The notes under the pieces are model-generated. The model was not told where the DNA came from and did no database searches. It was given only the letters and a program-made list of their open reading frames with translations. The translations under genes and the position numbers were made by a program. Below are positions 5,155 to 28,824 of a stretch of 29,663 nucleotides of DNA, one piece after another (the stretch's first letter is position 1; the number at the start of each line of letters is the position of its first letter). Source of the stretch: Candidatus Woesearchaeota archaeon (lineage in GTDB: Archaea > Nanobdellota > Nanobdellia > SCGC-AAA011-G17 > GW2011-AR17); NCBI GenBank assembly GCA_964358335.1, contig CAYHOW010000005.1, forward strand, positions 1 through 29,663. The letters are read 5' to 3'.

Positions 5155-5162
5155 TTTTTTTT
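5155..5162. terminator. T8 tract shared by convergent ndk (+) and wHTH regulator (-) genes
   Basis: tttttttt directly after the ndk TGA and next to the minus-strand stop at 5161. Confidence 0.4.
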
Positions 5163-5562
5163 ATATTTGCTTATCTATTTCTTCAGCTATATTTTTCATT
5201 GAAGTAAAGAATTCGTTGGCGTCTTTCTTCAGGAGATCTATGAGCTGGACAAGGTTATTCGTCCGGAGCATGTACTTGTTGCGTTTAGAGACGACGATGC
5301 CGGCGTCCATCAGGCGGTTAAGGTGATGCACCACAGTGCCTCTAGTGAGGTTAAGCTTGTAGGCTATCTCGTCGCTCGACAGCGGCTTGTCTATTTTGGA
5401 CGCCTTAAGGAGCTCGACGAAAATCCTGAAGCAGGACTTCTCCTTGTCCCTGAGGTTGAACAGCCCTAAGGAGTTGGAGAACCACTGTATCTCCTGGTTG
5501 ACGGTCTGCGTCCCGGCCTTGTCTATCTTGACAATGGTTATCCTCTTGAACGAATTTATCAT
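5161..5562 (-). CDS. small winged-HTH transcriptional regulator (ArsR/TrmB-like)
   Basis: LSSDEIAYKLNLTRGTVVHHLNRLMDAGIVVSKR is a canonical wHTH recognition helix–wing; start trimmed to Met at 5562 (MINSFKR…) because a TATA-like element TTTATA (5589-5596, minus strand) lies about 27 nt upstream. Confidence 0.55.
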   Translation of the reverse strand: MINSFKRITIVKIDKAGTQTVNQEIQWFSNSLGLFNLRDKEKSCFRIFVELLKASKIDKPLSSDEIAYKLNLTRGTVVHHLNRLMDAGIVVSKRNKYMLRTNNLVQLIDLLKKDANEFFTSMKNIAEEIDKQI

Positions 5563-5623
5563 TTCAATGATTAGAGTGCATAGGTTCGTATAAATAGTTT
5601 GTGATGGGAAAAATAAAAAAGAA

Positions 5624-6511
5624 TTATTTCTTCTGCTTTGCCGCAACGGCTTGAGCCGTGCCCTGGTCGATATCGGAGCTGTTTATCAGGAGCGTGGGGC
5701 TGATGCCCTTGTCCGTGAGGATGAACTTCGAGTTGTTCTTCAATGAGCTCTCGACGACCTCAAGCTGCTTAAGGAGCTGTGCGTTGCCCTTGAAGTACTT
5801 CTCTGCGGACTCGTTGATTATCTTTATCGCGCCTGCCTGCGCCTCGGCTTTTAACTTTATCGACTGCGCCTCGCCCTCGGCCTCCTTGATCTTTGCCCTT
5901 CTCGAGCCGTCAGCCTCTGTCTCCTTGGCTGTGGCGAAATCTATGGAGGCGGTCTTCTCGTTCTCGGCGATGACGACCTTGTTCATTGTGGCCTGGACGT
6001 CCTCGGGAGGATTGATCTCCTTCAGCTCGGCCCTGACAATCTCGATGCCCCAGTCAGCGGTCTCGGTGCTTAGCGTCTTCATGAGGTCCTTGTTTATCAT
6101 GTTCCTTTCGCCGTTCGCGTCAGAGAGCTTCATGGTGCCTATGATGTTCCTCAATGTCGTCCTTGCGAGGTTGACTATCTGGTTCTCGCAGTTGTAGACG
6201 TAGTACTGTGAGTTCTTGACGTTCTTCTCGTCTGCCCTTATCTTGAAATATATCTGGGCGTCGACTTTGGCGTTAAGCTTGTCGCTGGTGATTATCTCCT
6301 GGGACTCGACGTTGACCATCTTCTCCGTGATGTTGACGACAATCATCCTGTCCACTATTGGGATTATCCAGTTGAAGCCGTTGTTGGCGAACTTGTGGTA
6401 CTTGCCGAGCCTTTCTATGAGGCCCTTCTCTGTCGGCCTGATTATCCTTATGCCTGCGAAAAAAACCAGTGCAAATGCGCCTATAGCTGAATAGATATAG
6501 ATATTTGACAT
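5624..6511 (-). CDS. SPFH/band-7 family membrane protein (stomatin/prohibitin-like)
   Basis: N-terminal TM helix (IYIYSAIGAFALVFFAGI) then SPFH core (IIRPTEKGLIERLGKYHK…, QEIITSDKLNAKVDAQIYFKI, NIIGTMKLSDANGERNMI), C-terminal Ala/Glu/Lys coiled coil; start at Met 6511 (MSNIYIY). Confidence 0.8.
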   Translation of the reverse strand: MSNIYIYSAIGAFALVFFAGIRIIRPTEKGLIERLGKYHKFANNGFNWIIPIVDRMIVVNITEKMVNVESQEIITSDKLNAKVDAQIYFKIRADEKNVKNSQYYVYNCENQIVNLARTTLRNIIGTMKLSDANGERNMINKDLMKTLSTETADWGIEIVRAELKEINPPEDVQATMNKVVIAENEKTASIDFATAKETEADGSRRAKIKEAEGEAQSIKLKAEAQAGAIKIINESAEKYFKGNAQLLKQLEVVESSLKNNSKFILTDKGISPTLLINSSDIDQGTAQAVAAKQKK

Positions 6512-6730
6512 TTCGAGGATTAGAATCGGCGGTTTGTTTAAAAATGTTGCTAATCTGGGAGGCTTTGCACACAAACCCTGCCCTGCACATAAAGTCCATA
6601 TTTGATGGAATTGGCTGAAATCGCACTTGTCGACCTTAGATTGACAAGTTGCACATAAATGCATATAACCTTGTCAATGTTATCTTAGGATTTAAAAAAG
6701 AGCCAAGAAGAATTAGCCTAAAGTCAAATA

Positions 6731-8182
6731 CTACTTATAGAATTTTTTTGCTTCATCAAAAAGTTTAGTCAATTCATTTAAATCTAAATAAACCATCTTT
6801 TTTTGGTCTAACATTTCTAAACATTTGGGAGTAAAACCAGATTTCGAAACAAATAAATAATTGAAACTACCACTTTTATTTATTAATTTGGATTTTTCAT
6901 CTAATTTTTTTATATCTAATACATCCATTGGTTTATTTGTCCATTTAACTTCACAAAGAATAATTTGCCTTGTTTTTGAATTATTAGCTACAATTTCAAT
7001 CTCTTCAGTTACCCCTGCTAAATTTTTTCCCCACCACCAACTAATCTCATCAAAATTAATATGAAGTTCTTTTATATTTTTAGTATTATATAATATTAAT
7101 AATTCTCTTATAATTTCCTCAAATCTAAAACCTATAAAGCTATTCAAATCAGTCTCTATTTTCTTTTTTAATAAGTCCCTTCCTCCGATTTCAATTAAAG
7201 ATAGATTAGGATAAATAAATTTATACCAGAACTGAAAAAAATTATCAATAAATTTATATCTTGGTTTTATATTTCGTGTAGGAAAAAGAGGCTCTGTTTT
7301 TTTAATAAGATTTAAAAGTTCTATTAGGTTAGTGAAGTAGAAATCAATTGAACTTTGAGGAATTCCTGATTTTTCAATTATTTCTTCCCTAGTTCCATTA
7401 CTCTGTGCAATGGCATGTAGTATTGAATTATAGTTAGTTTCTTTCTTTAATTCCATTGTTATAAAATTTGTTGGTTCATCTATTAAAGGAGCAGATCTGC
7501 GTAAAACAAGTTTATTAATAATAGTCATTAAGTCTTTATTCGATTCATCTTTAACAAACCATAAGAAATGCGGTGTACCCCCAAATATAGAATAAAGTTC
7601 TACTTTCTTTGCTTCATCAAGATCTTCAAACATTTCTCTAAAATCAACATATCTAAATGGTTTAAATTCAATTTTTAAGGTCATACGCCCATATAAAGGC
7701 GCTGTTTTTTCCATAAATATATCATACATCATACTCATAGATGATCCAACCGCAAAAAACATTATATTTGTATATTTTAGTTTAGAATCCCAGAAATCTT
7801 GAAACATAGTCAAAAACTCAGGAGATTGTTCTTTTAATCTTGGAAATTCGTCCATTATAAAAATAAATTTTTCCTTAGATGCCTTTCTTTCTAAATATTG
7901 GAAGAAACTTGCCCATTCTACAAAAGTTTCTCTTTCCCCAGTTTGGTCAAAAATAGTATCTGATAATAAGGTCAGTAGTTCTTTTTTATTGGTTTTATTT
8001 ACAAAGTAATAAACTGCATTTTTTTTATCTTCTATAAATTTCTGAATAAATAAAGTTTTTCCGAGCCTTCTTCTTCCATATATGACGCAAAATTCACCCT
8101 TTTTAAGTTCCTTATATCTTCTATCTAAATCTTCTAATTCCTTTCTTCGGTCATAAAATTCCATTTTACCTAGTCTAACCAA
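6731..8182 (-). CDS. AAA+ ATPase of the archaeal Arch_ATPase/DUF234 family (483 aa)
   Basis: Walker A YGRRRLGKT, Walker B IFIMDEF, C-terminal DUF234-like region; coding region is strikingly AT-rich compared with neighbours. Confidence 0.75.
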   Translation of the reverse strand: MVRLGKMEFYDRRKELEDLDRRYKELKKGEFCVIYGRRRLGKTLFIQKFIEDKKNAVYYFVNKTNKKELLTLLSDTIFDQTGERETFVEWASFFQYLERKASKEKFIFIMDEFPRLKEQSPEFLTMFQDFWDSKLKYTNIMFFAVGSSMSMMYDIFMEKTAPLYGRMTLKIEFKPFRYVDFREMFEDLDEAKKVELYSIFGGTPHFLWFVKDESNKDLMTIINKLVLRRSAPLIDEPTNFITMELKKETNYNSILHAIAQSNGTREEIIEKSGIPQSSIDFYFTNLIELLNLIKKTEPLFPTRNIKPRYKFIDNFFQFWYKFIYPNLSLIEIGGRDLLKKKIETDLNSFIGFRFEEIIRELLILYNTKNIKELHINFDEISWWWGKNLAGVTEEIEIVANNSKTRQIILCEVKWTNKPMDVLDIKKLDEKSKLINKSGSFNYLFVSKSGFTPKCLEMLDQKKMVYLDLNELTKLFDEAKKFYK

Positions 8183-10951: not shown

Positions 10952-11575
10952 ATGATACCGACATTAATGAAATGCCACGAATTGCAAGATAGGTATAATA
11001 TGATGTCTACCTCGAAGATACATGCTGGAAAGATAAGGGACATCTCATTGGACTTAGTCAGCAGATTAAAGCATAAAGGATATAATTTAGACGAAGAAGT
11101 CATGGAAGCTTCCGCATTGCTGCACGACATAACAAAGGTCCATCAGATAATTTCCGAAGCTGTAGAAAGCAACGATGTGGGCGAGCTGAACAGGCATATT
11201 AATTTAGTCCCGAATTCATTCTCGGACATATATGCGCAGATGATGTGGATGAGGAGGCAGTTCGCATTGCCCGACAACGTCGAGCACGCCGAGTCAGGCT
11301 GCCATCTTCTCACTTATTTAGGGTACGGGGAGATAGGCGGCATAATCAGGCGGCACAACGACCCTATTGTGGAAATAAGCGAAAGAGCCATATTATGCTA
11401 TTCTGACAGGATAGTCTCGTTGGACATCGTGCCTCTCGAAGAGAGGTTCAGGTACATCTACAGGAAGTACGGCGACAAGAGCGAGCTCTATAATAGCTCG
11501 AAGGAATTGGAAAGGCTTTTATTGTCAACGGCAGGCATAACGTTCGAGGAGTTGGAGAGGATGCACCATGGCTAA
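10952..11575 (+). CDS. HD-domain phosphohydrolase-like protein, inserted between dnaK and dnaJ
   Basis: H…HD motif ([10 protein letters not shown]) followed by downstream His/Asp positions ([13 protein letters not shown]); overlaps dnaJ start by 8 nt so co-transcribed. Confidence 0.6.
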
Positions 11576-12674
11576 GGACTATTACAGGATCCTTGGCGTG
11601 GACAAGAATGCGTCCAAGGAAGATATCAAGAAGGCCTACAAGATTCTGGCAAAGAAGCACCATCCCGACCTTAACAAGGAATCGGGCTCTGCCGAGAAGT
11701 TCAAGGAGATAAACGAGGCTTATTCTGCGCTGAGCGATGACACTAAGAGGTCCAACTATGACAGGTTCGGGGATTCGGGAGAGCAATATTCGGGTTTCCA
11801 GGGCGGTAATTTCAATGACGAGATGTTCAATGACATGTTCGACAACTTCTTCGAAGGAAGCATATTCGGCGGCCAGAAGAGGGGCAGAAGAAAGGGCGCA
11901 GACCTGAAATACGAGATGGAAATCGCTTTCGAGGAGGCTGCATTCGGCACCAAGAAGAAGATAGACATAACCAAGTTAGGCAAGTGCGACAAGTGCGGCG
12001 GCACAGGCGCAGAAGACGGGAAAGTAACGGCTTGCGACGCATGCAGCGGCGCAGGACACATAAGGCAGCAGTTCAGGACGCCGTTCGGCATGATACAGCA
12101 GTCTGTAGTATGCGGAAGGTGCAGGGGAAGCGGCAAGATGGCGAAGAGCGCATGCAAGGAATGCGGTGGCAAGGGCAGGAAGAAAGTGTCAAGGTCAATA
12201 ACAATATCCATACCTGCGGGCGTTGACAATGGCTCGACGCTGAGGGTGTCAGGCGAAGGCGAGGCCGGCGAGCAGGGAGGCAGCGAGGGCGACTTGTATG
12301 TAGAGGTTTACGTCAAGCCCCATCCCATATTCGAGAGGGAAGGCAACGACATAACATTGGAGCTTCCGATAAGCTTCGCGCAGGCGGCGCTGGGCGACGA
12401 GGTCAAGGTCCCGACGCTGGAAGGCGACGTCACGATGAAAGTTCCCGCAGGCACGCAGTCGCATTCTCTGTTCAGATTGAAAGCTAAGGGCATACCATAT
12501 TTAGACGGCTACGGCAGGGGCGACGAGATAGTCAGGCTGATAGTCAAGACTCCCAAGTCATTGTCGCAGAAGCAAAAGAAATTATTGCACGAGTTCGCTG
12601 AAGATAATAAAGAAAGCCTAAAAATAGAGAAAGGTTTTTTCGACAAGGTTAGGGACGCTCTAATCTCTGACTAA
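11568..12674 (+). CDS. dnaJ: co-chaperone DnaJ (J domain, G/F region, CxxCxGxG zinc finger, C-terminal domains)
   Basis: [31 protein letters not shown] (HPD tripeptide); four CxxCxGxG repeats ([32 protein letters not shown]). Confidence 0.92.
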
Positions 12675-13485
12675 TACTCTCATAGAACCTTATTGCTTCT
12701 TCTAAAGCAACTATGTGCGAGCCAGTAGCGCACTTATTGTTCATGTACGAGCTTGGCGCGACAAGGACCAATGCAGGTATGTTCCGTTCCTGGCACGCAA
12801 AAGCGAACTGGTTTCTCGTCCTGAACACCAAGTTTCCTTCCTCAACGAAACCCTGGAACACTACACCAGGCGAAGTCACGATGTGCCCGTCTCCCAAGTC
12901 TCCATCCTTAGGGTTAAGCAGGTGTACATTTTCCTGCATAAGCTTGTTAGCTAGCGAACCGCCAACGTCTTTAGCCTCCGGGAACAAGAATTTAAGCCTA
13001 TTCGTGCCATCATCTTCAGATTGGAGCGTGGTCAGCTGATAGAACATGAAATATCCGTTCAATGAAGGAGCCTCTTCAGCGAAAGCCTCAGTCAGAAGCA
13101 AAGCCAAGTTATACTTTTTGGAATCAAGCAAATTCAATAAGGAACTGACTTGGACAGGCTTGTCAGTTTCAAGGTAAGCAGAATCTAAGTATTTCTTGTT
13201 GCCTAAAGTGCATCCGATAGACGTCCTTGTGCCCGGATACCCTTCGGTGTCAAGCACAGGCACCATATCGACAGAAGTATGTGCTGGCTGTTTGAGCCTA
13301 AGCTTGTCAGCCACATAAAGCATCGCGTTAGTCCCAGAGACCTTGTCGCCGTGCTCAGCGCCGATGACTAATATCTTATACATTTCTTCCTTGGCAGGGA
13401 ACTGCAAGAATGGCAAAACGCCGTAACTGAAACTGTTGCCATACTCCTTCTGGAGTTTAGAAACCAAATCATTCATGATAAACAC
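12649..13485 (-). CDS. putative zinc hydrolase of the M14 / AstE-AspA (succinylglutamate desuccinylase–aspartoacylase) fold, tentative; last gene of the prkA operon
   Basis: [16 protein letters not shown] resembles the N-terminal G-x-H-G-x-E Zn-binding block of AstE/AspA/M14 proteins (E/H order atypical); later His at …GSHIVALEE; 38-bp spacing from clpP-like gene; 3' end overlaps dnaJ 3' end convergently. Confidence 0.4.
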
Positions 13486-13523
13486 CTCATTATATTCTAA
13501 AGCATTAGGGTATATTAAGCTTT

Positions 13524-14294
13524 TTACTTGCTCAGTTTCCCTTTGCCTTCGATAATTCCGTCGATTATGCCAAGCTTAACAGCTTGTTCGGCTGTCATGA
13601 ACCTGTCTTTCTGGAGCCACTTCTTGAACCAGACTTTTAGCTCAGCATCATCCATCTTTTTAGGTTTCATGTCAGTGACATGGTCCATATCTGTCTCTCC
13701 TCCGAACTGGTGGAAGTATCCATCTTTATCTCTATTGATATGCTTGAGGTATATGTCAATGAACCTGCTGAAAAGATCATTGATGTAATCGTTCTGCACC
13801 AGCATATCGCTAAGCCTTCCGCCAGTACCCCCACTGGCCTCATGCAGCATTATTGTGGCATTCGGCAAAGCATATCTTTTTCCTTTTGCGCCAGCGGCCA
13901 AGAACATGCTGGCCATGCTTCCGGCCATGCCTGTGACCACGGTGGAAACATCAGACTTTATGTGCTGCATGGTATCATAGACCACAAGCCCCTCTGTAAC
14001 CATTCCGCCGGGGCTGTTGATATACATGACTATGTCCCTATTGTCTTCCTTGCCCATCGAATCTAAAGCGAGCATTTGTTCCATGGCGGACTCGGAAGTC
14101 CCGGTGTCTACCATGCCCGTGAACATAATTATCCTCTGCCTGAACAGCAGCGACCTAGGCGAATATCTGGCAGAGCTGTCATACATGTACACGCCACCTT
14201 CTTGGGAGCACGAACGCGCATGGCCGCCCTCTAATTTATCTGCCAAGTCTTTTGGTCCCCAGTAGGGACCGGATTGAAAAATTCTTACAGCCAT
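13524..14294 (-). CDS. ClpP-family serine protease (Clp proteolytic subunit homolog) with N-terminal extension and C-terminal insertion
   Basis: Collinear with ClpP: RIIMFTG…DIVMYINSPGGMVTEGLVVYDTMQHIKSDVSTVVTGMAGSMASMFLAAGAKGKRYALPNATIMLHEASGG…DRFMTAEQAVKLGIID; Ser (GSMAS), His (LHEASGG) and Asp (DRFMTA) of the triad conserved; GGAGGA SD 5 nt upstream. Confidence 0.8.
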   Translation of the reverse strand: MAVRIFQSGPYWGPKDLADKLEGGHARSCSQEGGVYMYDSSARYSPRSLLFRQRIIMFTGMVDTGTSESAMEQMLALDSMGKEDNRDIVMYINSPGGMVTEGLVVYDTMQHIKSDVSTVVTGMAGSMASMFLAAGAKGKRYALPNATIMLHEASGGTGGRLSDMLVQNDYINDLFSRFIDIYLKHINRDKDGYFHQFGGETDMDHVTDMKPKKMDDAELKVWFKKWLQKDRFMTAEQAVKLGIIDGIIEGKGKLSK

Positions 14295-14312
14295 TTTTAG
14301 TCCTCCATATTA

Positions 14313-16715
14313 CTAAATGTCCACGTTACTAAAGTCCCACATCAAGTCGAAGAACACATACTCCAATGCTGACTTTGCGCATTTGTCGCAGTACAGCGCC
14401 TTCTTCTTGAGGTTAGTTATTATCCTATCTATCTCCTTTCTTGCAGGCGGATTAATTGACTGGTCCTTCTTGGTGCCTATCCATTGTACGCTCCTCCGCA
14501 ACTCTTCAGGAGTCACTTCCATCTTCTTGATTGCTCCCTTAAGCAATGAGTCATATATGAACTGATAATAGTCATCAAAAAGTTCAGTCACGTCAAGCTG
14601 AGGGATATTATCATATCCTTCTTCTTCTGCCTTAGTCCGAGCTTCCCTGTAGTCCACAGCCAGTTCCAATACAACGTCGCGCCTATGGCTTTCCCTCTGC
14701 TCAAGCATGGAAAACACGCCAATTAAGTCTTCAAGCCAGTTCATCTTCTTCTCGCTTGGCGGCTCATATTCCTTTGTTATCGGGTTGTATACAGTACTAT
14801 TCTCAGCCCAAGCCTGCACGTGAGTTACATACTCGATAATGTTCTTGTCGAGCTCTTCCTTTGGCATGCCTACTATTGCCCACTGCACGTCCTGCTGCAC
14901 TGCAGCATCATACTCATTTATTGCGCTTTCAAGCAAATGTCGTATGTTAAGGTACTTTTTCTCTTCCTTCTTGCTGTAAGTTAAAGCGCCAGGTATCCCG
15001 GACTCAACTATCTTTTCCAATTTTGCCTTGAAATCATTTATGCCGAGGCATACGCACTTCTTGGTCCTGCACTCGATGTCTTCCTTATATCCTATTACGT
15101 CAGTGATAAGGTCCATTATCCTTCTTGGAGATATTCCCGCCATGCCTTCTTTCTCATAGACAACGCCATCTTTTGTGATCTTGACCCCCTGAAGTGGATT
15201 ATGCTCTTCCCTGAGCAACTTTTTTATCATCGGCGCAACAATAAGCTTCTTCTCATAAGTTGCAAGTCCCAAAGGCATCTTGTCGTCGTATATCATTGCC
15301 TTCTGTATTGGAGAGAGATCCTTGATGATATCAAGGGTGTCTTTGTCAGCGCCATTTTCCTTATAGTATTCAGGGCTTGGCTTGTATAGCCTTGTCAGCA
15401 CAGCGAATAACGCAACAAAATCCCTTATGTGTGGCATGATATGCTTATGGTCGCCATGCTCAGGATCCTCGCTGTAACCGGCTTCCTTGAATTTTGATAG
15501 GTATATCTGCTTCTCGTCGGAAATTTTTATTAGGTAAGGGATGTCAAAGGAGCGAGTCCTGTCAAGGAGCGCCTTGTTGATGGCGTCCATCCTTACGGAA
15601 CTAAACCCTTCAATATTTGTGGTGCCTATTATAAGTGTGTCAACTGTTGCCTGCACGCCGTTGAAGTCCTGAATATGCTCCTGGACGGCGGAAAGAAGGT
15701 TGTTGTGCTTAGAGTCTCTCATGAACATATCGCTGAAATGCAGTATGCCCCTGTTGGCATCAACCCATTTGCCTTCAAACTGGTGAAGTGATATGCCGGG
15801 GAAAAGTTCAGCCAGATTCTGGTATGATGCGCCTTCCCTGACAAGCAACTTTGCATTGCCTTCGACGTTCTGGACGGGCTGGACGGTTGCTGCGCCAATC
15901 TGCTCAATCTCAGACACTAGCAGCCTAAGAACTTGGATGTGGTTAAGTACCTTGCCAATGTCACCGTCGTACTTGTCTAGGAGCCTATCATAGATGGTCT
16001 GGCAGTTCTTGCACAATTCATTCTCCAGAAGAATCTTAGGTATGACCACATCCTTGTGGCCGTCATTGACAACTTCCTCAAGATACTTTCTCCTTTTGTC
16101 CTTGGGTATAAGCATTAGCGGATGGTCGTTCATCTGGCAAGGCACCCTGATGAAAAGGTCCTCATCTGCTAGGTGCGCAAGCGACTTAGTATTATTAGAA
16201 TGGTCATGCGGAAGGTTAAATCCGATATTCTCCATGAAACTGTCCTCTACAAAGACCCAATCGAAAGTGTATATGCCCCCGTTACTGGTCCTTGAATAAT
16301 GCTGAAGACCGTTTATCAGAAGTCTTATTATAGAAGTCTTTGCCGTGCCCTGCGGGCCATGGAGAATGATTATCCTCTCATCGCCACCTTTGTTTGCGGT
16401 AGTTTCGATATAATTTACTATTGCTGACACCTGCCTGTCAAGCCCGAAGACAGAATGCTTGCCTAACTCGGAACTTATCTCCCTATCGAAAGGATCATCG
16501 AAGAGCTCGTACCTGATTATCTTCTCTCCGCAGTCAATAATATCGCGTGTGCCAAAATAGTTAATCATGTCTGATATCATCTGGAAAGCGGTCCTTGTGT
16601 AATTGTAAGGATTCATCTCAAGCTTGTGCAGGAATTCGTCGAACGACGCGACATACTTCCTTGCGGCATACTCTTCCCGAACTTCATTCTTTATTACGCT
16701 GAACTTGGTTGCCAT
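14313..16715 (-). CDS. prkA: PrkA-family serine protein kinase (AAA ATPase + PrkA C-terminal domain), paralog 1
   Basis: Walker A ILHGPQGTAKTS, PrkA-typical blocks (CQMNDHPLMLIPKDKRR, FSDMFMRDSK, LIIGTTNIEGF, ALLDRTR); start set to Met 16715 (MATKF…; AGGAGA SD upstream) because the longer ORF (to 16775) would overlap spoVR by 44 nt. Confidence 0.85.
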   Translation of the reverse strand: MATKFSVIKNEVREEYAARKYVASFDEFLHKLEMNPYNYTRTAFQMISDMINYFGTRDIIDCGEKIIRYELFDDPFDREISSELGKHSVFGLDRQVSAIVNYIETTANKGGDERIIILHGPQGTAKTSIIRLLINGLQHYSRTSNGGIYTFDWVFVEDSFMENIGFNLPHDHSNNTKSLAHLADEDLFIRVPCQMNDHPLMLIPKDKRRKYLEEVVNDGHKDVVIPKILLENELCKNCQTIYDRLLDKYDGDIGKVLNHIQVLRLLVSEIEQIGAATVQPVQNVEGNAKLLVREGASYQNLAELFPGISLHQFEGKWVDANRGILHFSDMFMRDSKHNNLLSAVQEHIQDFNGVQATVDTLIIGTTNIEGFSSVRMDAINKALLDRTRSFDIPYLIKISDEKQIYLSKFKEAGYSEDPEHGDHKHIMPHIRDFVALFAVLTRLYKPSPEYYKENGADKDTLDIIKDLSPIQKAMIYDDKMPLGLATYEKKLIVAPMIKKLLREEHNPLQGVKITKDGVVYEKEGMAGISPRRIMDLITDVIGYKEDIECRTKKCVCLGINDFKAKLEKIVESGIPGALTYSKKEEKKYLNIRHLLESAINEYDAAVQQDVQWAIVGMPKEELDKNIIEYVTHVQAWAENSTVYNPITKEYEPPSEKKMNWLEDLIGVFSMLEQRESHRRDVVLELAVDYREARTKAEEEGYDNIPQLDVTELFDDYYQFIYDSLLKGAIKKMEVTPEELRRSVQWIGTKKDQSINPPARKEIDRIITNLKKKALYCDKCAKSALEYVFFDLMWDFSNVDI

Positions 16716-16731
16716 TTTGTTTTTGGTCTCC

Positions 16732-18321
16732 TTATCTCCTTTTAAGGTCCTTGGTCTTAATGTCCTTTCCGTCATAAGTTATAATGACTGGCTTGCCACC
16801 TTCCCTTGTGGCTATATGGACAGTCCTGCCCCACACCTTGAATATGTTCTTCAGGGTCCTGTCCCTCTTGTCTGTCTCGAGAATAGTCTCATCATAAGAC
16901 TTATGGAAAAGCAACAATTCTCTGGAGTTTCCGAAGTTACCATTAATGACCTCAATCACCGGCTCGCCACAGTTAACTAGGGGCGCCATTATAGAGTCCC
17001 TTATCTTTTCAGGGTCCCTGTCATTGATTTTGTACCAGTTGTCCCTTTTGTCCAAGGAAAAATTATAGAACTGCTTCCTTTCAATCAAGTCAGGAGTGAA
17101 GAAAGTTCTTAGGAACTCATAGTCGTCCATGGTGTCCCTCACTTCGAACATCTTCTTCATGCCTTCTCCAGCCTTAGTGTCCCAATTCATTCTCTTCTCA
17201 GCATTGGTCTCACGTTCGAAATTGATTCCATGCCTTCCAGTGTCCCAGCATTCCTTGATATCCTGCCAAATCATGTAGCCGATATAGTAAGGGTTGACCG
17301 AGCCAGGAGCAGTAGCCAATACACTAGCATTTACCTTGCAGTACTGTATGACATCATCCCTAGCGAAACCTAGGTCTTCCATGAACTTCCTGTGCCAGTA
17401 GACAGCCCATCCTTCGTTCATTATCTTGGTCTTCCTTTGCGGAAGGAAATAATAAAACTCGTCCCTGATTATTGAAAGTATATCCCTCTGCCACGGAGTC
17501 ATGCCTTCTCCGTGCTGTATCAGGAACCTCAGGACGTCCCTCTGCGGTATTTTAGGGAACCTATCATTTGCCTTCTCATTGTCAGCGTCAATCTTCTTCA
17601 TCTCATCTATGAAATCCTGGGGATTGATGAAAGGGTCCATGTAAGGACTGCTTATCCTGAGCCTGTACTCGAGATTTTTTTGTTCTTCTTCCACTGTGCT
17701 GTCGCAACATCCGTGGTCGCCACTGCACTTATGGTCTTCGCTACAGCGGCCGCACCCCTTTTTATTTTGTATTACGGGGCTGCCGTCTTCCAGAGGCCTG
17801 AGGTCCAGATATGAAGCATCATAATCAATGAGGTTTTCGAGAGATATAGCAATCTCGATGAACTTCTCGACCTCTTCATACCCGAACTTCTGCTGGTAGA
17901 ACCTTATCATCTCGGCATGGTCTGACATGACATTATGCATGTTCCTGTTAGTCCTTGAGAATAGGTAATTGTTCTTGAAGAAATCCGCATGGCCGTAGAC
18001 ATGCGAGATAACCATCTTCTGTATGACCTGCGGGCTGGTCTCCAAAAGATAAGCTATGCTGGGATTGGTATTTATCACAAGCTCGTATATGTGCGAGAGC
18101 CCATAGCCCTGCTGCTTCTCATAATATTTCTGCTGCATGCCGAAGTACCAGTGCGGGAACCTCTTAGGCATTCCGACGTACGACGTTACTTCCATAAGCG
18201 TATCGAAGTCAACCATGACGAAATGGACAGGAAAATAATCCAGCTTGAACTCATTCCTTGCTATCATATCCATCTCTTTGCTTGCTTCTTTCAATTCTTC
18301 AGTAAGTGGCCCTTGTTTCAT
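16732..18321 (-). CDS. spoVR: SpoVR/YcgB-family protein
   Basis: SpoVR hallmarks: HVYGHADFFKNN, NEGWAVYWH, long conserved C-terminal region; contains a Cys/His-rich insert (GCGRCSEDHKCSGDHGCCDS). Confidence 0.85.
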   Translation of the reverse strand: MKQGPLTEELKEASKEMDMIARNEFKLDYFPVHFVMVDFDTLMEVTSYVGMPKRFPHWYFGMQQKYYEKQQGYGLSHIYELVINTNPSIAYLLETSPQVIQKMVISHVYGHADFFKNNYLFSRTNRNMHNVMSDHAEMIRFYQQKFGYEEVEKFIEIAISLENLIDYDASYLDLRPLEDGSPVIQNKKGCGRCSEDHKCSGDHGCCDSTVEEEQKNLEYRLRISSPYMDPFINPQDFIDEMKKIDADNEKANDRFPKIPQRDVLRFLIQHGEGMTPWQRDILSIIRDEFYYFLPQRKTKIMNEGWAVYWHRKFMEDLGFARDDVIQYCKVNASVLATAPGSVNPYYIGYMIWQDIKECWDTGRHGINFERETNAEKRMNWDTKAGEGMKKMFEVRDTMDDYEFLRTFFTPDLIERKQFYNFSLDKRDNWYKINDRDPEKIRDSIMAPLVNCGEPVIEVINGNFGNSRELLLFHKSYDETILETDKRDRTLKNIFKVWGRTVHIATREGGKPVIITYDGKDIKTKDLKRR

Positions 18322-19499
18322 TTTCCAGTCCCCAAGAATATTTTTAATGCAGCTAATATATCATCTTCGCCAGTTATCCTCGCTGTCATCAGCTTGTCTT
18401 TCTGATTTTTTTTCTCAGCATACTCCTTGATTTCTTTCAGATACACGCCCTCGGTATCAGTCCCGCCGTATACGCGGCCGTAATAGTCGGTGTAAGGCAG
18501 GTCAATCTGGCCGTAGCAGAAAAGGTTTGCCTTAGGCATTATCAAGTCAAGCATCTTGAACTCATCCTTGTTATTTCCCCAGTTATCTCCGTCCGACCAC
18601 TGGAAGCAGTAAATGTTCCACTCTTCAGGATTGAAGAACTGGTTGATGACAAGGTCGCAGAGTTCGTACGCTGAAGCGATTCTCGTCCCGCCAGAAGTCG
18701 ACGTCCTATAGAACTCATAGTAGCTTACCTGCTTAGCAGAGTAGTCATGTATGATATAGATGGACTCTATGCCCTTGTACTGAGACCTAAGGAAAGTATC
18801 AATCCAGAACGACGTCAGCCTGGCTATGCTCTTGTGCCTTTCGCTCATAGAGCCTGAAACATCCATCATATAAATTAATACTGCATCTGACTCGGGCTTT
18901 GTGGTAGTCTTCCACGACCGATACCTCATGTCCTCTTTCCTTATTGTTATTATAGGATCCTCCGGGTCATATTCGCCAGAGGCGATTGTCCTGAACAAGG
19001 CCTGCATGAAGGTAGCCTCGATGCGCAACAAAGCATCAGGGCCTACTGTTCTCGAGCCAGAATACCTGTCGAACTCAGTATATATCCTCTTCTTCCTGCC
19101 TTTATCCTCAACGTTAGGCAGCCCCAACTCTTCCTTCATTATACTTGCAAGAACTTCGAGATTGACCTCAACCTCTATAGAATGCTCACCTTCGCCCTCG
19201 CCGGCTTTCTTACCGTCGCCTTCGCCCTCGCCCTGCTGCCCAGGGAAAAGCTTATCACCTACATTTCCCGGTCCCCTGCCTACTCCACCTTGACCTTCAC
19301 CATCACCTTGGCCATCTTCAGAATTGTCAGGCGCTTTCTTGAACCGGGGAATCTCGACATGTGGCAAAGGTATAGAAATAGTCCCGTCCCTCTTTGGCTT
19401 CAAAATATCGTAGTTCTTGATGATATTCTTGAGGTCTTTCCTTACGCTACCCTTGATGATATCCTCGAATCTTTTTTTGTTCGAGTCTCCGTAAGCCAT
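18318..19499 (-). CDS. yeaH: YeaH/YhbH-family protein (DUF444, vWA-like) with low-complexity Gly/Glu/Asp-rich N-terminal segment
   Basis: DUF444 core (VLIYMMDVSGSMSERHK… = vWA MIDAS-like DxSxS; FCYGQIDL…); N-terminal GQGDGEGQGG…GEGEGDGKKAGEGEGE acidic low-complexity region typical of YeaH/YhbH. Confidence 0.8.
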   Translation of the reverse strand: MAYGDSNKKRFEDIIKGSVRKDLKNIIKNYDILKPKRDGTISIPLPHVEIPRFKKAPDNSEDGQGDGEGQGGVGRGPGNVGDKLFPGQQGEGEGDGKKAGEGEGEHSIEVEVNLEVLASIMKEELGLPNVEDKGRKKRIYTEFDRYSGSRTVGPDALLRIEATFMQALFRTIASGEYDPEDPIITIRKEDMRYRSWKTTTKPESDAVLIYMMDVSGSMSERHKSIARLTSFWIDTFLRSQYKGIESIYIIHDYSAKQVSYYEFYRTSTSGGTRIASAYELCDLVINQFFNPEEWNIYCFQWSDGDNWGNNKDEFKMLDLIMPKANLFCYGQIDLPYTDYYGRVYGGTDTEGVYLKEIKEYAEKKNQKDKLMTARITGEDDILAALKIFLGTGK

Positions 19500-19504
19500 T
19501 TCAA

Positions 19505-21610
19505 TTACCTGTTACGGGCATCTCCTCTTGCAAAGATGCTTGAAGCGGCCTCAAGGACTCTTCCAGCACAGACATCGCAATACCCGAACTCCTTCTTAAG
19601 ATTAGCCTTGATAAGGTCTATTTTCTCCATTTCTTCCTTGGTCCGGACTTCCTTGAACAGGGCGCTGAAATTAATCAAGTCTTTCTTTTCCTCGAAAAGC
19701 TTCAGCACAAGCCCGCGGTAAAGCGTCTCGTTAGTGTCATAGTTGAGCTGCTCCTTGCCCAAGGCGCACCTGGATATGAACGATACAATGCCGGACCTGA
19801 AATTGTCTTTCATAGCTTCGGTAATCTCAATTTTCTCCTCGATGCTTCTCATGAGCTTCTCGTCAGGATCGATCATCCTATGCGGCTGGAACGGATCCCG
19901 AAGCTTCTTCTTCTCGATGTAAGCTTGGAGGTTGTCAAGATACTTTGTGAACAGCGACCGGAGCTCTTCAGGGTTGTTGACTACTGCTCTGTTGACCTCA
20001 TCCTTGATTATCTCAAGGTACTGACCCTGTGACAACTTCAACAAAGCCTTATACTCCTTAATAGTCTCTTCGCTGTTTAAAATGGCGGACTTGTCAAGCA
20101 GCATCTCTATCTGGGCATAGACCTGGAATGGGTTCAAGCAGGACTCATCACGGTTTTTTACTGAGGCATCTCCTATTGCGTCAATGATGAACCTTGTTGA
20201 AATCCCATCCAATCCTTCCCTTTTTGCTTCTCTGATTAGTTTCCTCACATAGTTATCATCTTTATCGGGGAACTTTCTGCCATTGTAAAGCCACATCTTC
20301 TGGACCTTGCCAAGGCCGTCGTCGTTCGCCTCTTTTGGAGCCTCAAGCCTCGTAAGTTCGGCAAAGATTGATGCAAGCTGGAAAGTGTGGGGTGCGATGT
20401 GCTTCCTGACCTTTCCCGGCGTGAAAATCTTACCATAAATTTTCTCTTCTTGATCAAGCACTAAGTTGTAAGGGACATCGTACCTTGATGTCCTGTCCTT
20501 GAAAGCCTTCATAAGCTCGTCTTCCAGCAGCTTCCTGAACTCTTCCTCGTTCGTGTGCCCAAGAATGACCAAGTCGACATCAGTAAGCGCGAACTTCTTC
20601 GGCTTGATCTTCTGTTCCTGTGAAGCGACTAATAAATCGTAAAGGAATGCCCTCTCAAGCTTCAATATTTCTATGAACTCGATGATGCCCCTATTTGCTA
20701 CACAGAGCTCACCATTGAAGTTGAATGCTCTCGGATCCGAGTCGGAACCTAAGATAGCAATCCTTCTGAAATCCATACTGCCTGTAAGGTCAGCGGCATC
20801 CTGGTTTTTCTCATCTTTGGGCTGGAAAGTTCCGATGCCCCTCCTGTCGCCTTCGGAAATGAAGAACCTGAAAACCTTGATATGGTTCATGACCTTGTCC
20901 CAGTCTCCGCCATAGTGTGCCATAAGCATGTCATAGTTGAACCTGCAGTGCGGGCAGAGCTGCCCAATAATATCAATAGGATACTTGACTTTCTCATTGT
21001 TCCTGTTTGCGTCGTTTATGCTCCTTACGAGGTCAGGCCTCCTTGAGACATCCACCAGCTTCAATGGATCTTCATGCAGTTCGCACTCATGGTCGTACAG
21101 CTTGACAACTCCTACGCCTGGGGCATCTACAGTGAACCCAGAATTCTTGTCATCGTAATTGCCAAGGCCTAACCACCTGAATGTGTAGATGGGGTCTACG
21201 TGCGAATTGTTCTCTAAGCCTCTCTTAAGTAACGTTGCGATTGTGCTCTTTGCGCTAGCCACGGGCCCATGCAACAGCAATACTCTTTTCTCCTTGCCTA
21301 GCTTATGTGCTGCCGCATCGAAATGGTTGACAATATTTTCGAGGTGCTCATCAATGCCGAACAACGAATTCTCGGAGGGCGTTCCGTCGGGCTGGAGGTC
21401 CATGAAGAAATGGTAAGCTTTTACCTCATCCCCGAACCTCTTGTACTTCTGCGAACCTTTCTCAATAATCATATCGAATACCCTTTGGTTGGCGTTCCTT
21501 ACTGGCCTTGCATTTTCGTGCAGCAAGTCTAAGTACTCATGCATAGTTATCTCGCGCAAACCTGCATACTTTTCGATTTTACCGCCGAATTTAGAACTCG
21601 TTTCTGACAT
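19505..21610 (-). CDS. prkA: PrkA-family serine protein kinase, paralog 2 (shorter form)
   Basis: Walker A LLHGPVASAKST, PrkA blocks (CPHCRFNYDMLMAHYGGDW, ILGHTNEEEF); ATG at 21610 preceded by AGAGGT SD with ~10-nt spacing (the track ORF start at 21622 is a GTG). Confidence 0.8.
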   Translation of the reverse strand: MSETSSKFGGKIEKYAGLREITMHEYLDLLHENARPVRNANQRVFDMIIEKGSQKYKRFGDEVKAYHFFMDLQPDGTPSENSLFGIDEHLENIVNHFDAAAHKLGKEKRVLLLHGPVASAKSTIATLLKRGLENNSHVDPIYTFRWLGLGNYDDKNSGFTVDAPGVGVVKLYDHECELHEDPLKLVDVSRRPDLVRSINDANRNNEKVKYPIDIIGQLCPHCRFNYDMLMAHYGGDWDKVMNHIKVFRFFISEGDRRGIGTFQPKDEKNQDAADLTGSMDFRRIAILGSDSDPRAFNFNGELCVANRGIIEFIEILKLERAFLYDLLVASQEQKIKPKKFALTDVDLVILGHTNEEEFRKLLEDELMKAFKDRTSRYDVPYNLVLDQEEKIYGKIFTPGKVRKHIAPHTFQLASIFAELTRLEAPKEANDDGLGKVQKMWLYNGRKFPDKDDNYVRKLIREAKREGLDGISTRFIIDAIGDASVKNRDESCLNPFQVYAQIEMLLDKSAILNSEETIKEYKALLKLSQGQYLEIIKDEVNRAVVNNPEELRSLFTKYLDNLQAYIEKKKLRDPFQPHRMIDPDEKLMRSIEEKIEITEAMKDNFRSGIVSFISRCALGKEQLNYDTNETLYRGLVLKLFEEKKDLINFSALFKEVRTKEEMEKIDLIKANLKKEFGYCDVCAGRVLEAASSIFARGDARNR

Positions 21611-21776
21611 TTGTATTTTCACCTCTTAATTATCGGTTTTGTCTAATTTTTTAATATAATTTTAATATTGCTCTGAAAGAGCGTATTTCTGGTATCATAA
21701 AGAAGAGAATGTGCATTAAAAAGCTTGTGACAAAATAGAGTAACATTTATAAAATCTGACATATTTAATGGAATAA

Positions 21777-24502: not shown

Positions 24503-24889
24503 ATGAAAAAGGGAATGGATAGTGAAGGGAGAGCTGTCTACAAGTTCAGCCATGGTGTGTGCCAAGGCGGATATCTATACGGGCATAAGACGAAAGAGGG
24601 CTTTACCATAGAAGACAAGGAAGGGCTGAAGAAAGCACTTAGCGCAGTTGCAGAGCGATATGGGCTGATGGATGTAACAATAAAAGCCTATGATGATGTT
24701 TTCTTTATTTTCTTCATGATGAGGCCGTCTCTTGCGCCGCAGAAGATAATCGACAGCATACAGAAAGAGATAGGGCAGATTTCAGAATGGCCTGAAGACT
24801 ATATCTTCAATGGCATTTCAGATTTGCGCAAAAAGAGCATCGAGGAAGAGCTGAATAAGTTGGGGATGAAAGATGAGCAAGGGCAATGA
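24503..24889 (+). CDS. IS200/IS605-like Y1 (HuH) transposase homolog lacking the HuH motif and C-terminal catalytic Tyr (probably inactive/domesticated), tentative
   Basis: N-terminal AVYKFSHGVCQGGYLYGH aligns by eye with TnpA N-termini (e.g. VLYKSNHNVVYSCKYH); the block MDVTIKAYDDVFFIFFMMRPSLAPQKIIDSIQKE occupies the position of …DHIHMLLEIPPKMSVSSFMGYLKGK… but His-u-His is replaced by VFFIF; start moved to Met 24503 because the upstream part of the track ORF overlaps the tRNA. Confidence 0.45.
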   Translation: MKKGMDSEGRAVYKFSHGVCQGGYLYGHKTKEGFTIEDKEGLKKALSAVAERYGLMDVTIKAYDDVFFIFFMMRPSLAPQKIIDSIQKEIGQISEWPEDYIFNGISDLRKKSIEEELNKLGMKDEQGQ

Positions 24890-25268
24890 GCAGATTTGCA
24901 GCGTCTGCAAAGAGAAAAACAACAGGGAAATATGCGATAGATACAGAGATCTTATAAAAAATGGCGCTTCCGAAGAGGCGGTTAAGCGGATGCTGTCCGA
25001 CAAGGAAACAAACAAGGTATGGGAAGAGAACAAGCACACCGCTAACATCCTAGCTGACGCATATTATGAGAGCATCCTTGATGAATTTAAAGGGGAGATG
25101 AAGAAAAGCAGCAAAGAAACTTTTGGCTACAACACATTTGCCGAAGGCATAACTATTGCACTTGACATCATAATGCCTATGCTGGACAAAGAATCTAGGG
25201 CAGTCGTAAAAAGAAAGATAGACATGATGATTAGTGCAAGGAAAAAGCATGGGAAGGGGAGAAAATGA
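24873..25268 (+). CDS. hypothetical protein (131 aa), Cys-containing N-terminus (CSVCKEKNNREIC)
   Basis: ORF overlaps upstream gene by 17 nt and downstream gene by 4 nt (translational coupling); coding-like composition. Confidence 0.5.
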   Translation: MSKGNEQICSVCKEKNNREICDRYRDLIKNGASEEAVKRMLSDKETNKVWEENKHTANILADAYYESILDEFKGEMKKSSKETFGYNTFAEGITIALDIIMPMLDKESRAVVKRKIDMMISARKKHGKGRK

Positions 25269-25885
25269 GAACCATAAAGACGTACGCATTGAGCGAAGAC
25301 ACATTGGAGAAGGACTTGGACAAGTTCATCAGGGCGGCAAAGGGAGGAGCATACCAGTTCGATTATAAGTGCGGCGGCGAAGGCCTGAAACTTATCAAGG
25401 CGTATTTCAGGATGATAGAGGCCGAATACAAGCAGGACAATTATGCCGTAGCAAGGGCGTGCTACAAGAATCTCATGTTCCTCCTGCTGCAAAGTGATTA
25501 TAACTACTTCAATTATGAGGACATCGTTGGCAAGCTGAATTTTGAGAAGTTCATAGGGAACTATTTCACATGCCTGATTCATACATGCGATGCCGATGAG
25601 CTGTTCAAGGAGTATGTCGAATACCTAAAGGTTAAAGTGGATTATGGCTTTGATTCTGCGCATGTCACGATAATCAACAGCCTGCCCGAGCCCAGCTTAA
25701 GCCGGTTCATGGAGTTAGTTACCAAGGAGGCAGAAAATGTAACAGAAGAGGATTATGCAATGCATGACATGATAGACTTACTGCTGGACATGGCCAAGTC
25801 AAGGAGCAATAAGGAAGAGTTTGATAGGCTATCAAAGAAATATGAGCATATACTTGGAGATGATATGGACGGAGAGCTTGCCTAA
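25265..25885 (+). CDS. hypothetical protein (206 aa)
   Basis: ORF in tight overlap chain (ATGA overlaps on both sides); no recognised motif. Confidence 0.55.
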   Translation: MRTIKTYALSEDTLEKDLDKFIRAAKGGAYQFDYKCGGEGLKLIKAYFRMIEAEYKQDNYAVARACYKNLMFLLLQSDYNYFNYEDIVGKLNFEKFIGNYFTCLIHTCDADELFKEYVEYLKVKVDYGFDSAHVTIINSLPEPSLSRFMELVTKEAENVTEEDYAMHDMIDLLLDMAKSRSNKEEFDRLSKKYEHILGDDMDGELA

Positions 25886-26310
25886 TGACCAAACTATACA
25901 TCGACACCAACATACTCATCTATGCTATTGAAGATAGCTTGAATCCCTTCGGAAAAGATATCAGCACATCCTCATCAAAGCTGTTTGGGGAAGCAGCTTC
26001 ATGCAAATATCAAGTAATCATATCGACATGGGCCCTTAGCGAAGTAAGAAGAATCAGGAACATCGATGATTTGGACATGCTGCTGAAAATCGTGGAAAAG
26101 AAAATAATCATCCAAAAGTACACGAAAGAGGATGTTGAACAGGCAAAAAGGCAGAATTCAGATCATTTTCAGGACGAGCTTCATGGAATGCTCGCATTAC
26201 GGGCAGGAGCGGATTACATCGTTACAAGGAACGTTGACGATTTCAAGCATCTCAACAAACAGATTAAGGCAGTAAAACCAGAACAATTACTTAAGCCCAG
26301 CTCTTCTTAA
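25885..26310 (+). CDS. PIN-domain nuclease (VapC-like)
   Basis: N-terminal LYIDTNILIYAIED (first acidic PIN residue), ISTWALSEV (middle), C-terminal ADYIVTRNVDDFK (distal Asp), the classic PIN pattern. Confidence 0.75.
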   Translation: MTKLYIDTNILIYAIEDSLNPFGKDISTSSSKLFGEAASCKYQVIISTWALSEVRRIRNIDDLDMLLKIVEKKIIIQKYTKEDVEQAKRQNSDHFQDELHGMLALRAGADYIVTRNVDDFKHLNKQIKAVKPEQLLKPSSS

Positions 26311-28353: not shown

Positions 28354-28824
28354 ATGAAGATGAAAGGCAACAGGATATTATTTGGAATGATTATATGCAG
28401 TGCTCTAGCTATAATAGTGGCTGCATATCTGGTCTACATCTATTACATGGCAGACGTCACAGGCATATGCCAGCCAGGGACGAAATTCGACTGTAATTCT
28501 GTCAGCCAGAGCAGGTACGGATTAATGTTCGGGCTCCCTGTATCGTTGTTCGGCCTGACTTTCTACACAGTATTCTTCCTTTTGGGCTTGGCGCTGTACA
28601 AGGGTCTTGAGCTAAGGCACATACATAAATCGCTGAGCAGGAACCACACGTTCTGGCTGATGTTCCTCATACCTCTGTTCGGCACGGCGTTCTCATTGAG
28701 GCTGAGCTACATAGAGGCGATGGTATTGAAGGCATGGTGCCCGTTCTGCGTGATACAGCAGTTCATAGTGTTCATAATGCTCATCTTGTCATTATCGATG
28801 CTGAGGCACAGGCACCAGATATGA
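28354..28824 (+). CDS. vitamin K epoxide reductase (VKOR)-family membrane oxidoreductase
   Basis: Multi-TM protein with loop Cys pair (CQPGTKFDC) and TM-embedded CxxC active site (WCPFCV), the VKOR arrangement. Confidence 0.7.
   Translation: MKMKGNRILFGMIICSALAIIVAAYLVYIYYMADVTGICQPGTKFDCNSVSQSRYGLMFGLPVSLFGLTFYTVFFLLGLALYKGLELRHIHKSLSRNHTFWLMFLIPLFGTAFSLRLSYIEAMVLKAWCPFCVIQQFIVFIMLILSLSMLRHRHQI

Follow-up and report, generated by a model that had tools for sequence, protein, structure and literature searches.

Two genes resembling peptidase genes follow a PrkA cluster in an archaeal genome, and the question that this locus raises is whether the output of the PrkA module can be proteolysis. 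The PrkA/YeaG–YeaH–SpoVR module is widespread and induced by starvation, osmotic stress and sporulation; its mechanism is unexplained. The DNA analysed is an entire contig of 29,663 bp from a Nanoarchaeota/Woesearchaeota metagenome-assembled genome (CAYHOW010000005.1; the whole stretch is called the window here). An earlier note on this DNA had proposed that a ClpP homologue and a putative M14/AstE-like zinc hydrolase, encoded in one operon with two PrkA paralogs, YeaH and SpoVR, make regulated proteolysis the output of the module. We find that the cluster is a genuine and conserved DPANN extension of the known PrkA module. The coupling to proteolysis is plausible and lineage-restricted, and gene neighbourhood is the evidence for it.

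Six open reading frames (ORFs) lie on the minus strand between 12649 and 21622 in the order PrkA-a, DUF444, SpoVR, PrkA-b, ClpP and gene 6, and inspection of the ORFs and their junctions confirmed the tight, operon-like layout. The likely start of PrkA-a (19505–21610, 701 aa) is the ATG at 21610, with GAGGTG 6 nt upstream; the longest ORF begins at a GTG at 21622. The AT-rich intergenic region upstream (21611–21776, minus strand), which is common to a divergent 219-aa ORF, is the presumed operon promoter region. A 5-nt spacer separates PrkA-a from the DUF444 gene (18318–19499, 393 aa), which overlaps the SpoVR gene (16732–18321, 529 aa) by 4 nt. PrkA-b (14313–16715, 800 aa) follows 16 nt after SpoVR if it starts at the likely ATG (16715, preceded by GGAG); the longest ORF, to 16775, overlaps SpoVR by 44 nt. 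The gap between PrkA-b and ClpP (13524–14294, 256 aa) is 18 nt, with GGAGG upstream of ClpP. Gene 6 (12649–13476, 275 aa) starts 47 nt after ClpP at the ATG at 13476 (GAGGTG before the ATG) or 38 nt after it at a GTG, and at its 3' end it shares 26 nt with the convergent dnaJ. The six genes are likely to be co-transcribed, judging from the sequence. The spacer between ClpP and gene 6 (13477–13523, minus strand) reads as a possible internal promoter, with the TATA-like CTTAATATA and a GAGGTG ribosome-binding site. The TATA-like CTTTATATA, about 36–44 nt upstream of the gene 6 ATG, and the GAGGTG are conserved in the window and in three related loci (L002, L007 and L015), and gene 6 may carry an additional archaeal promoter of its own; in two further loci (L175 and L177), ClpP and gene 6 overlap instead. 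A scan for sigma-70 promoters and terminators showed no enrichment, these models not being applicable to archaea.

Families were called at the Pfam gathering scores and the NCBIfam equivalog cut-offs, and the calls agree with the earlier assignment of two PrkA paralogs, DUF444/YeaH, SpoVR and ClpP. PrkA-a, a canonical PrkA/YeaG-type AAA+ ATPase with the PrkA C-terminal domain, scores 268.5 bits against PF08298 (AAA_PrkA, E 1.2e-79) and 194.4 bits against PF06798 (PrkA C-terminal, 3.5e-57); the divergent second paralog, PrkA-b, scores 115.8 (2.9e-33) and 100.2 bits (2.1e-28), the cut-off being 25. Against NCBIfam PRK15455 both fall under the equivalog cut-off of 576 bits (193 for PrkA-a, 76 for PrkA-b), and by these scores they are members of the PrkA family and not equivalogs of E. 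coli YeaG. The two proteins are collinear, with 28% identity over about 790 columns, and Walker A and B motifs are recognisable in each: GPVASAKST and IIEFIE (Walker B-like) in PrkA-a, GPQGTAKTS and ILHFSD in PrkA-b. PrkA-a matches the solved PrkA structure 9xip at E 1e-176; the entries 9xip, 9xiq and 9xir hold a 692-aa ‘Serine protein kinase’ of the PrkA-a type, with 30 chains over the three, and no paper behind 9xip was found in a literature search. PrkA-a, PrkA-b and 9xip share conserved cysteine clusters that may bind zinc, a C…CxxC after the Walker A region and a YCxxCA near the C-terminus; those of PrkA-b include C212, C254, C257, C795 and C798. The YeaH/YhbH-type protein reaches 241.7 bits against DUF444 (PF04285, gathering score 27, E 2.1e-71), matches NCBIfam PRK05325.2-3 at 1.2e-114, falls just under the equivalog cut-off of NF003711 (383.4 against 388 bits) and also has a weak match to a cobaltochelatase subunit. 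The SpoVR/YcgB-type protein scores above the gathering score for both SpoVR (PF04293, 381.4 bits, 5.9e-114) and SpoVR_C (34.5 bits, 2.2e-08).

The first three genes show the same families, in the same order PrkA–DUF444–SpoVR and with the same tight linkage, as the module of bacteria and haloarchaea. In haloarchaea, two PrkA genes lie side by side in a cluster that also holds DUF444 and SpoVR (PMC3102087). A second PrkA is likewise present here; in contrast to the haloarchaeal cluster, it follows SpoVR rather than standing beside the first. The nearest relatives of the PrkA-b subfamily are stand-alone genes of Planctomycetota, Bdellovibrionota and Myxococcota.

The neighbourhood survey combined exact-protein look-ups, a scan with a PrkA-b alignment over one genome per GTDB species and a hidden Markov model (HMM) scan of all ORFs in the retrieved loci (designated L001 onwards). 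The alignment for locus finding was narrowed, an earlier and wider one (A4) having been too diverse and replaced by A5. Nine divergent Nanoarchaeota lineages show the order PrkA-a–DUF444–SpoVR–PrkA-b–ClpP–gene 6, or as much of it as their contigs cover: the window group (L002–L005), L001/L014, L007/L008, L015, L016, L175/L176, L177, L178 and L174. Across these, identity to the window drops to about 36% for PrkA-b and 24% for gene 6, PrkA-b and ClpP overlap by up to 8 nt or lie up to 18 nt apart, and the downstream flank varies (dnaJ, a 474-aa ORF, YdjM, Hef helicase or CoA-transferase). Every copy found of the archaeal ClpP subfamily adjoins prkA-b or sits at a contig end consistent with that position. 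The assemblies with the cluster include GCA_043814545.1 and GCA_053531995.1. The earlier note had left room for the ClpP and M14-like genes never being associated with prkA elsewhere; the survey finds both beside it repeatedly, with differing flanks. The PrkA-b–ClpP–gene 6 linkage is real, ancient within Nanoarchaeota and lineage-restricted.

Since the same order recurs in independent assemblies, the arrangement is not due to chance. ClpP, DnaK/DnaJ/GrpE and PrkA are typically bacterial and all data are metagenome assemblies, which would fit chimeric assembly or binning having brought a bacterial-looking clpP, prkA and dnaK onto an archaeal contig. The arrangement is found, however, in more than 10 independent assemblies (NCBI, JGI, ENA and Logan) together with aIF5B, Spt5, L7Ae, S28e, Hef and family-B polymerase on the contigs, and the GC content is uniform (about 0.45–0.48) through the cluster of the window; such an artefact is effectively refuted. 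The window itself also encodes FtsZ, Spt5, NDK, aIF5B and tRNA-Arg, and its relatives are labelled Nanoarchaeota, Woesearchaeota or ‘archaeon’; the archaeal origin proposed earlier is upheld by FtsZ, Spt5 and aIF5B.

One clade (L009/L010/L017, L012, L018 and L011/L021) lacks ClpP, with gene 6 following PrkA-b directly; both genes are missing from L020. The ClpP-minus loci are monophyletic in 200/200 and 60/60 bootstraps of neighbour-joining trees of PrkA-b rooted with bacterial homologs and lie nested among the ClpP-plus lineages, a pattern that argues for a single loss, or in any case for one event. Because ClpP was lost once with the rest of the module kept, it is an accessory component rather than a general output of the module. 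As gene 6 stays when ClpP is lost, gene 6 is probably tied to PrkA-b rather than to ClpP.

ClpP is a bacterial-type S14 peptidase of an archaeal subfamily. It is placed in CLP_protease (PF00574) with 174.3 bits (gathering score 20.2, E 3e-51) and aligns to solved ClpPs at E ~1e-37. Since it scores below the cut-off of every NCBIfam ClpP model (the best 169.5 against 249), it is a divergent member of the family. The closest relatives are five proteins of the same archaeal lineage (52–65% identity), followed by ordinary bacterial ClpPs at about 40%; the proteins P0014–P0016 were dropped as close relatives, being fused or duplicated bacterial ClpPs that adjoin clpX. The catalytic triad Ser97-His122-Asp171 (E. 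coli mature numbering) is kept in all six aligned archaeal copies, and this intact triad suggests that the archaeal ClpP, bacterial-derived, is catalytically competent. All archaeal copies have an insertion of ~29 aa just before the Asp-bearing segment, which suggests a single acquisition. They also carry an N-terminal extension of 20–40 aa. For the docking pocket and the axial gating loop, we used the residues that we take to form them in E. coli ClpP. The gating loop has a 3-residue deletion (E8-Q9-T10 gone). Of the 11 pocket positions, nine show conservative residues; the other two, 49 and 82, where bacteria have aromatic residues (F49 and F82), are A/S/V/T and His, respectively, in every archaeal copy. 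The extension, the shortened gating loop, the insertion and the non-aromatic residues at these two pocket positions all set these proteins apart from bacterial ClpP. In the distantly related L174 (284–1781), two tandem ClpP paralogs lie between PrkA-b and gene 6, the second with Asn for the catalytic Asp, an arrangement that recalls the heteromeric ClpP1/P2 systems.

Gene 6 was harder to place. Neither it nor its family matches any Pfam or NCBIfam model even at E up to 10 (PF00246 included), no close family member has a Pfam M14 or AstE match, and the gene 6 profile finds nothing meaningful among PDB sequences; of the profile-HMM assignments suggested in the earlier note, that of ClpP succeeded and that of gene 6 gave no family. 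The family is very small, with 7 proteins in a collection of 5.8 billion sequences and 20 representatives among 1.84 billion, and wherever the context is known, it lies in Nanoarchaeota PrkA clusters. Among the 20 representatives, the two weakest are true M14 peptidases by Pfam (3e-22 and 5e-12). The family profile reaches them at E 3.5e-5 and 7.8e-5, and hhalign aligns the family with them at a probability of 97.9% (E 4e-13). A first AlphaFold2 model from 7 sequences was poor (predicted local distance difference test score, pLDDT, 56.5) and was replaced by a high-confidence model from 21 sequences. In this model, the protein is predicted to adopt the alpha/beta fold of M14 carboxypeptidases, and its best structural matches are F. 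tularensis REP34 (4oko), carboxypeptidase B and 3ieh.

The active site of gene 6 is degenerate. The M14 motif GGIHGDE aligns to GGEHGDK, so that the zinc-ligand Glu (E72 in bovine carboxypeptidase A numbering) is K45 and HxxE becomes HxxK. The zinc-ligand His (H69) corresponds to H42 in the window and is not conserved in the family, where several members have L, K or F instead; the third ligand, H196, aligns to T129. The NRN motif with the substrate anchor N144/R145 aligns to a G-x-x-x-Y-L-D segment without Arg. Aligned via P0179, the catalytic E270 falls on the hydrophobic V239, in a less certain stretch of the alignment. Features of AstE/AspA, namely the PF24827 catalytic domain and an HxxE…H zinc site, were not found either. 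Gene 6 is most likely a pseudo-peptidase, as read from its sequence, and the family is probably a very rare new pseudo-peptidase family that is M14-like only in remote homology and fold. Catalytically inactive M14 relatives exist, such as the CPXM and AEBP1-type proteins.

The M14 fold of the high-confidence model would also suit an active metallohydrolase that has a metal site other than the canonical one (in the clade of the window, for instance, E41, H42, D44 and H198) and trims peptides released by ClpP. E41, G43, D44 and D76 are invariant or nearly so in the family, H42 and H198 are conserved in the close relatives of the window, and one family member (P0167) keeps HGDE. The zinc-ligand Glu is nevertheless Lys in most members, the remaining substitutions described above affect both metal and substrate binding positions, a whole clade has gene 6 without ClpP, and Pfam detects no M14 or AstE domain in the close members. 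We consider this activity improbable. Of the ‘M14/AstE-like’ zinc hydrolase described earlier, the remote homology and the M14 fold stand and the enzymatic part is not supported. The cluster contains one credible peptidase, ClpP, and not two, because gene 6 is without the M14 zinc ligands and the N144/R145 anchor.

The most probable ATPase partner of ClpP would be PrkA-b, given that the prkA-b gene adjoins clpP or overlaps it. The PrkA-b profile aligns to 9xip except for an insertion of ~37 residues after the YTFNW strand (residues ~150–190, at ~16150–16270), which is subfamily-specific, missing from 9xip and seen across the PrkA-b-type loci L001–L093. Of 72 distinct PrkA-b-type sequences, 68 have the tripeptide [ILVM]G[FLIMY] within the insertion (11.8 expected from shuffling); the pattern is present in 6 of 23 PrkA-a-type sequences. 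It is mostly LGF or IGF, often within GGIGFGG. The IGF loop of ClpX docks on ClpP, and the tripeptide of PrkA-b resembles it. The position of the insertion, after β-2, would suit a pore loop as well. We treat the loop as a mechanistic lead, not as evidence of docking on ClpP, and consider direct docking of PrkA-b on ClpP rather unlikely.

Taken together, the cluster would be the form that the PrkA–YeaH–SpoVR stress module takes in Nanoarchaeota (DPANN), vertically inherited and tightly packed, with a proteolytic output added by PrkA-b, a competent ClpP and a non-catalytic M14-fold protein; we give this reading an even chance. In such a system, the AAA+ proteins of the module would select substrates, engaging and remodelling target proteins in stress or dormancy. 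PrkA-b would pass these substrates to the co-encoded ClpP, whose barrel would serve as the proteolytic chamber. The dead M14 protein would be a structural or adaptor subunit associated with PrkA-b. ClpP has been stated to be absent from archaea (PMC6600665), which makes it plausible that a dedicated partner is encoded nearby. ClpXP, ClpAP and ClpCP offer the closest likeness, in that ClpP, about 40% identical to bacterial ClpPs and with an intact triad, is encoded directly downstream of an AAA+ ATPase gene. The differences are that no ClpX, ClpA or ClpC gene is seen nearby, that a PrkA-type protein is the neighbouring ATPase and that the host is archaeal. The earlier proposal that the output of the module is regulated proteolysis is plausible as far as ClpP is concerned; it fails for gene 6 as an enzyme and as a general statement, the link being lineage-restricted and ClpP having been lost once.

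Several observations weigh against this reading. The evidence for co-function is gene neighbourhood alone, within one lineage, and the TATA-like element upstream of gene 6 makes a single transcript uncertain. ClpP-minus archaea and bacterial PrkA-b types have the IGF/LGF loop just as much, and when PrkA-b was searched for an insertion or motif exclusive to ClpP-plus loci, none was found. Outside the lineage, neither ClpP nor gene 6 occurs within ±10 kb of PrkA in any of 72 bacterial loci from the PrkA-b scan, so that both genes are extra here relative to the known module; these loci comprise stand-alone PrkA-b-like genes (Planctomycetota, Bdellovibrionota and Myxococcota) and PrkA–DUF444–SpoVR triads (Myxococcaceae and Chloroflexota). 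The metagenome scan with the archaeal ClpP alignment brought, among the matches listed, ordinary bacterial ClpPs and no further archaeal loci, and serves as a negative control: PrkA, DUF444, SpoVR and gene 6 occur in none of the 80 loci with the most similar ordinary ClpPs among those matches. Synteny is conserved in the region generally, with aIF5B upstream in every locus and grpE-dnaK-dnaJ in several lineages. Finally, one clade lost ClpP with no other visible change in the module. These same observations, from the intact module of the ClpP-minus clade and the missing linkage in bacteria to the general synteny and a PrkA-b in which no feature tracks ClpP, are what would be expected if a bacterial clpP had been acquired once, had landed between prkA-b and gene 6 and had been kept by inheritance as a general housekeeping peptidase that acts alone or with another archaeal AAA+ such as PAN or Cdc48 and is not specifically tied to the PrkA module.

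Such a passenger ClpP is possible, and we regard it with some doubt. The adjacency has outlasted divergence to the identities given above while the downstream flanks changed, and the stop/start overlaps or gaps of 1–18 nt suggest translational coupling. Moreover, all copies found of the subfamily adjoin prkA-b or lie at a compatible contig end, and the docking surface is remodelled in comparison with bacterial ClpP. Whether ClpP works functionally with the module we judge to be about evenly balanced.

At the bacterial PrkA loci, the conserved neighbours are not peptidases; they are a 5'-nucleotidase, MscS, a PEP-utilising enzyme and TPR proteins. On one bacterial-looking contig (L013, 5959–10263), the gene of a tail-specific (S41) peptidase is followed after 4 nt by a stand-alone PrkA-b-like gene. 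This case is a one-off among the bacterial loci, and a general PrkA–peptidase link in bacteria was discarded.

A connection between PrkA and proteolysis has been proposed before. PrkA of B. subtilis was reported in 2022 to be a Lon-like ATP-dependent protease, with slow degradation of casein that was ATP- and PMSF-sensitive (PMC9512850). PrkA of B. anthracis (2026) forms oligomers in the presence of ATP and contains a pore loop; it is without protease active-site residues and, when fully purified, showed no protease or kinase activity (PMC13001217). The reading proposed for the present cluster resembles Lon and the B. subtilis proposal in placing a PrkA-family AAA+ ATPase upstream of proteolysis. 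It differs in that the peptidase would be a separate ClpP, whereas the activity reported as intrinsic to PrkA was slow (24 h, casein only) and not reproduced in B. anthracis. A literature search found no paper that connects PrkA with either ClpP or an M14-like protein, and none on PrkA with ClpP in archaea. The novelty suggested in the earlier note holds, within the literature searched, for the linkage of ClpP to the PrkA module and not for the idea of PrkA in proteolysis, which had been both proposed (PMC9512850) and disputed (PMC13001217).

A bolder possibility is that the PrkA-b types make up a class of AAA+ unfoldases, hitherto unrecognised, that activate ClpP. The flexible (G)[IL]GF(G) insertion would serve a PrkA-b hexamer for docking on the ClpP barrel, the dead M14 protein would be an adaptor or regulator, and the stand-alone PrkA-b-like proteins of Planctomycetota, Bdellovibrionota and Myxococcota would use the ClpP of the cell. 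This proposal presumes that Nanoarchaeota have no canonical Clp ATPase, and we consider it unlikely. If it were true, a peptidase acting in trans would explain the conflicting reports of PrkA ‘protease activity’. The oligomeric state of 9xip, 9xiq and 9xir would bear directly on the idea of PrkA as an unfoldase.

Other features of the window are as follows. The cluster grpE-dnaK-HD-dnaJ converges on gene 6 and contains a 207-aa HD-domain ORF (10952–11575, plus strand) between dnaK and dnaJ; this insertion is present also in L002–L004 and L178 and not in L001. An archaeal ATPase_2 + DUF234 gene (6731–8182, minus strand) coincides with a GC trough (27.5% at 7001–8000 against ~46% around it) and may be recently acquired. 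No link to the PrkA cluster was seen for an SPFH/Band_7 gene with an ArsR-type HTH gene (5161–6664, minus strand), a PIN_3 gene after two ORFs without a Pfam match (24873–26310, plus strand) or a VKOR homolog (28354–28824, plus strand). The six cluster proteins gave no matches to the PADLOC defence models, and an anti-phage defence reading of the cluster was dropped on this basis.

A bona fide ClpP subfamily fixed in archaea is unusual in itself, given that archaea have been described as being without ClpP (PMC6600665). The conserved IGF/LGF-bearing loop defines the PrkA-b subfamily, and the locus names a concrete pair of proteins, PrkA-b and ClpP, for joint testing. A PrkA paralog hard-wired to a separate ClpP is a natural experiment on the disputed role of PrkA, as a protease or as an AAA+ ATPase only, and points to an unfoldase role of PrkA ATPases, with proteolysis as one possible output.

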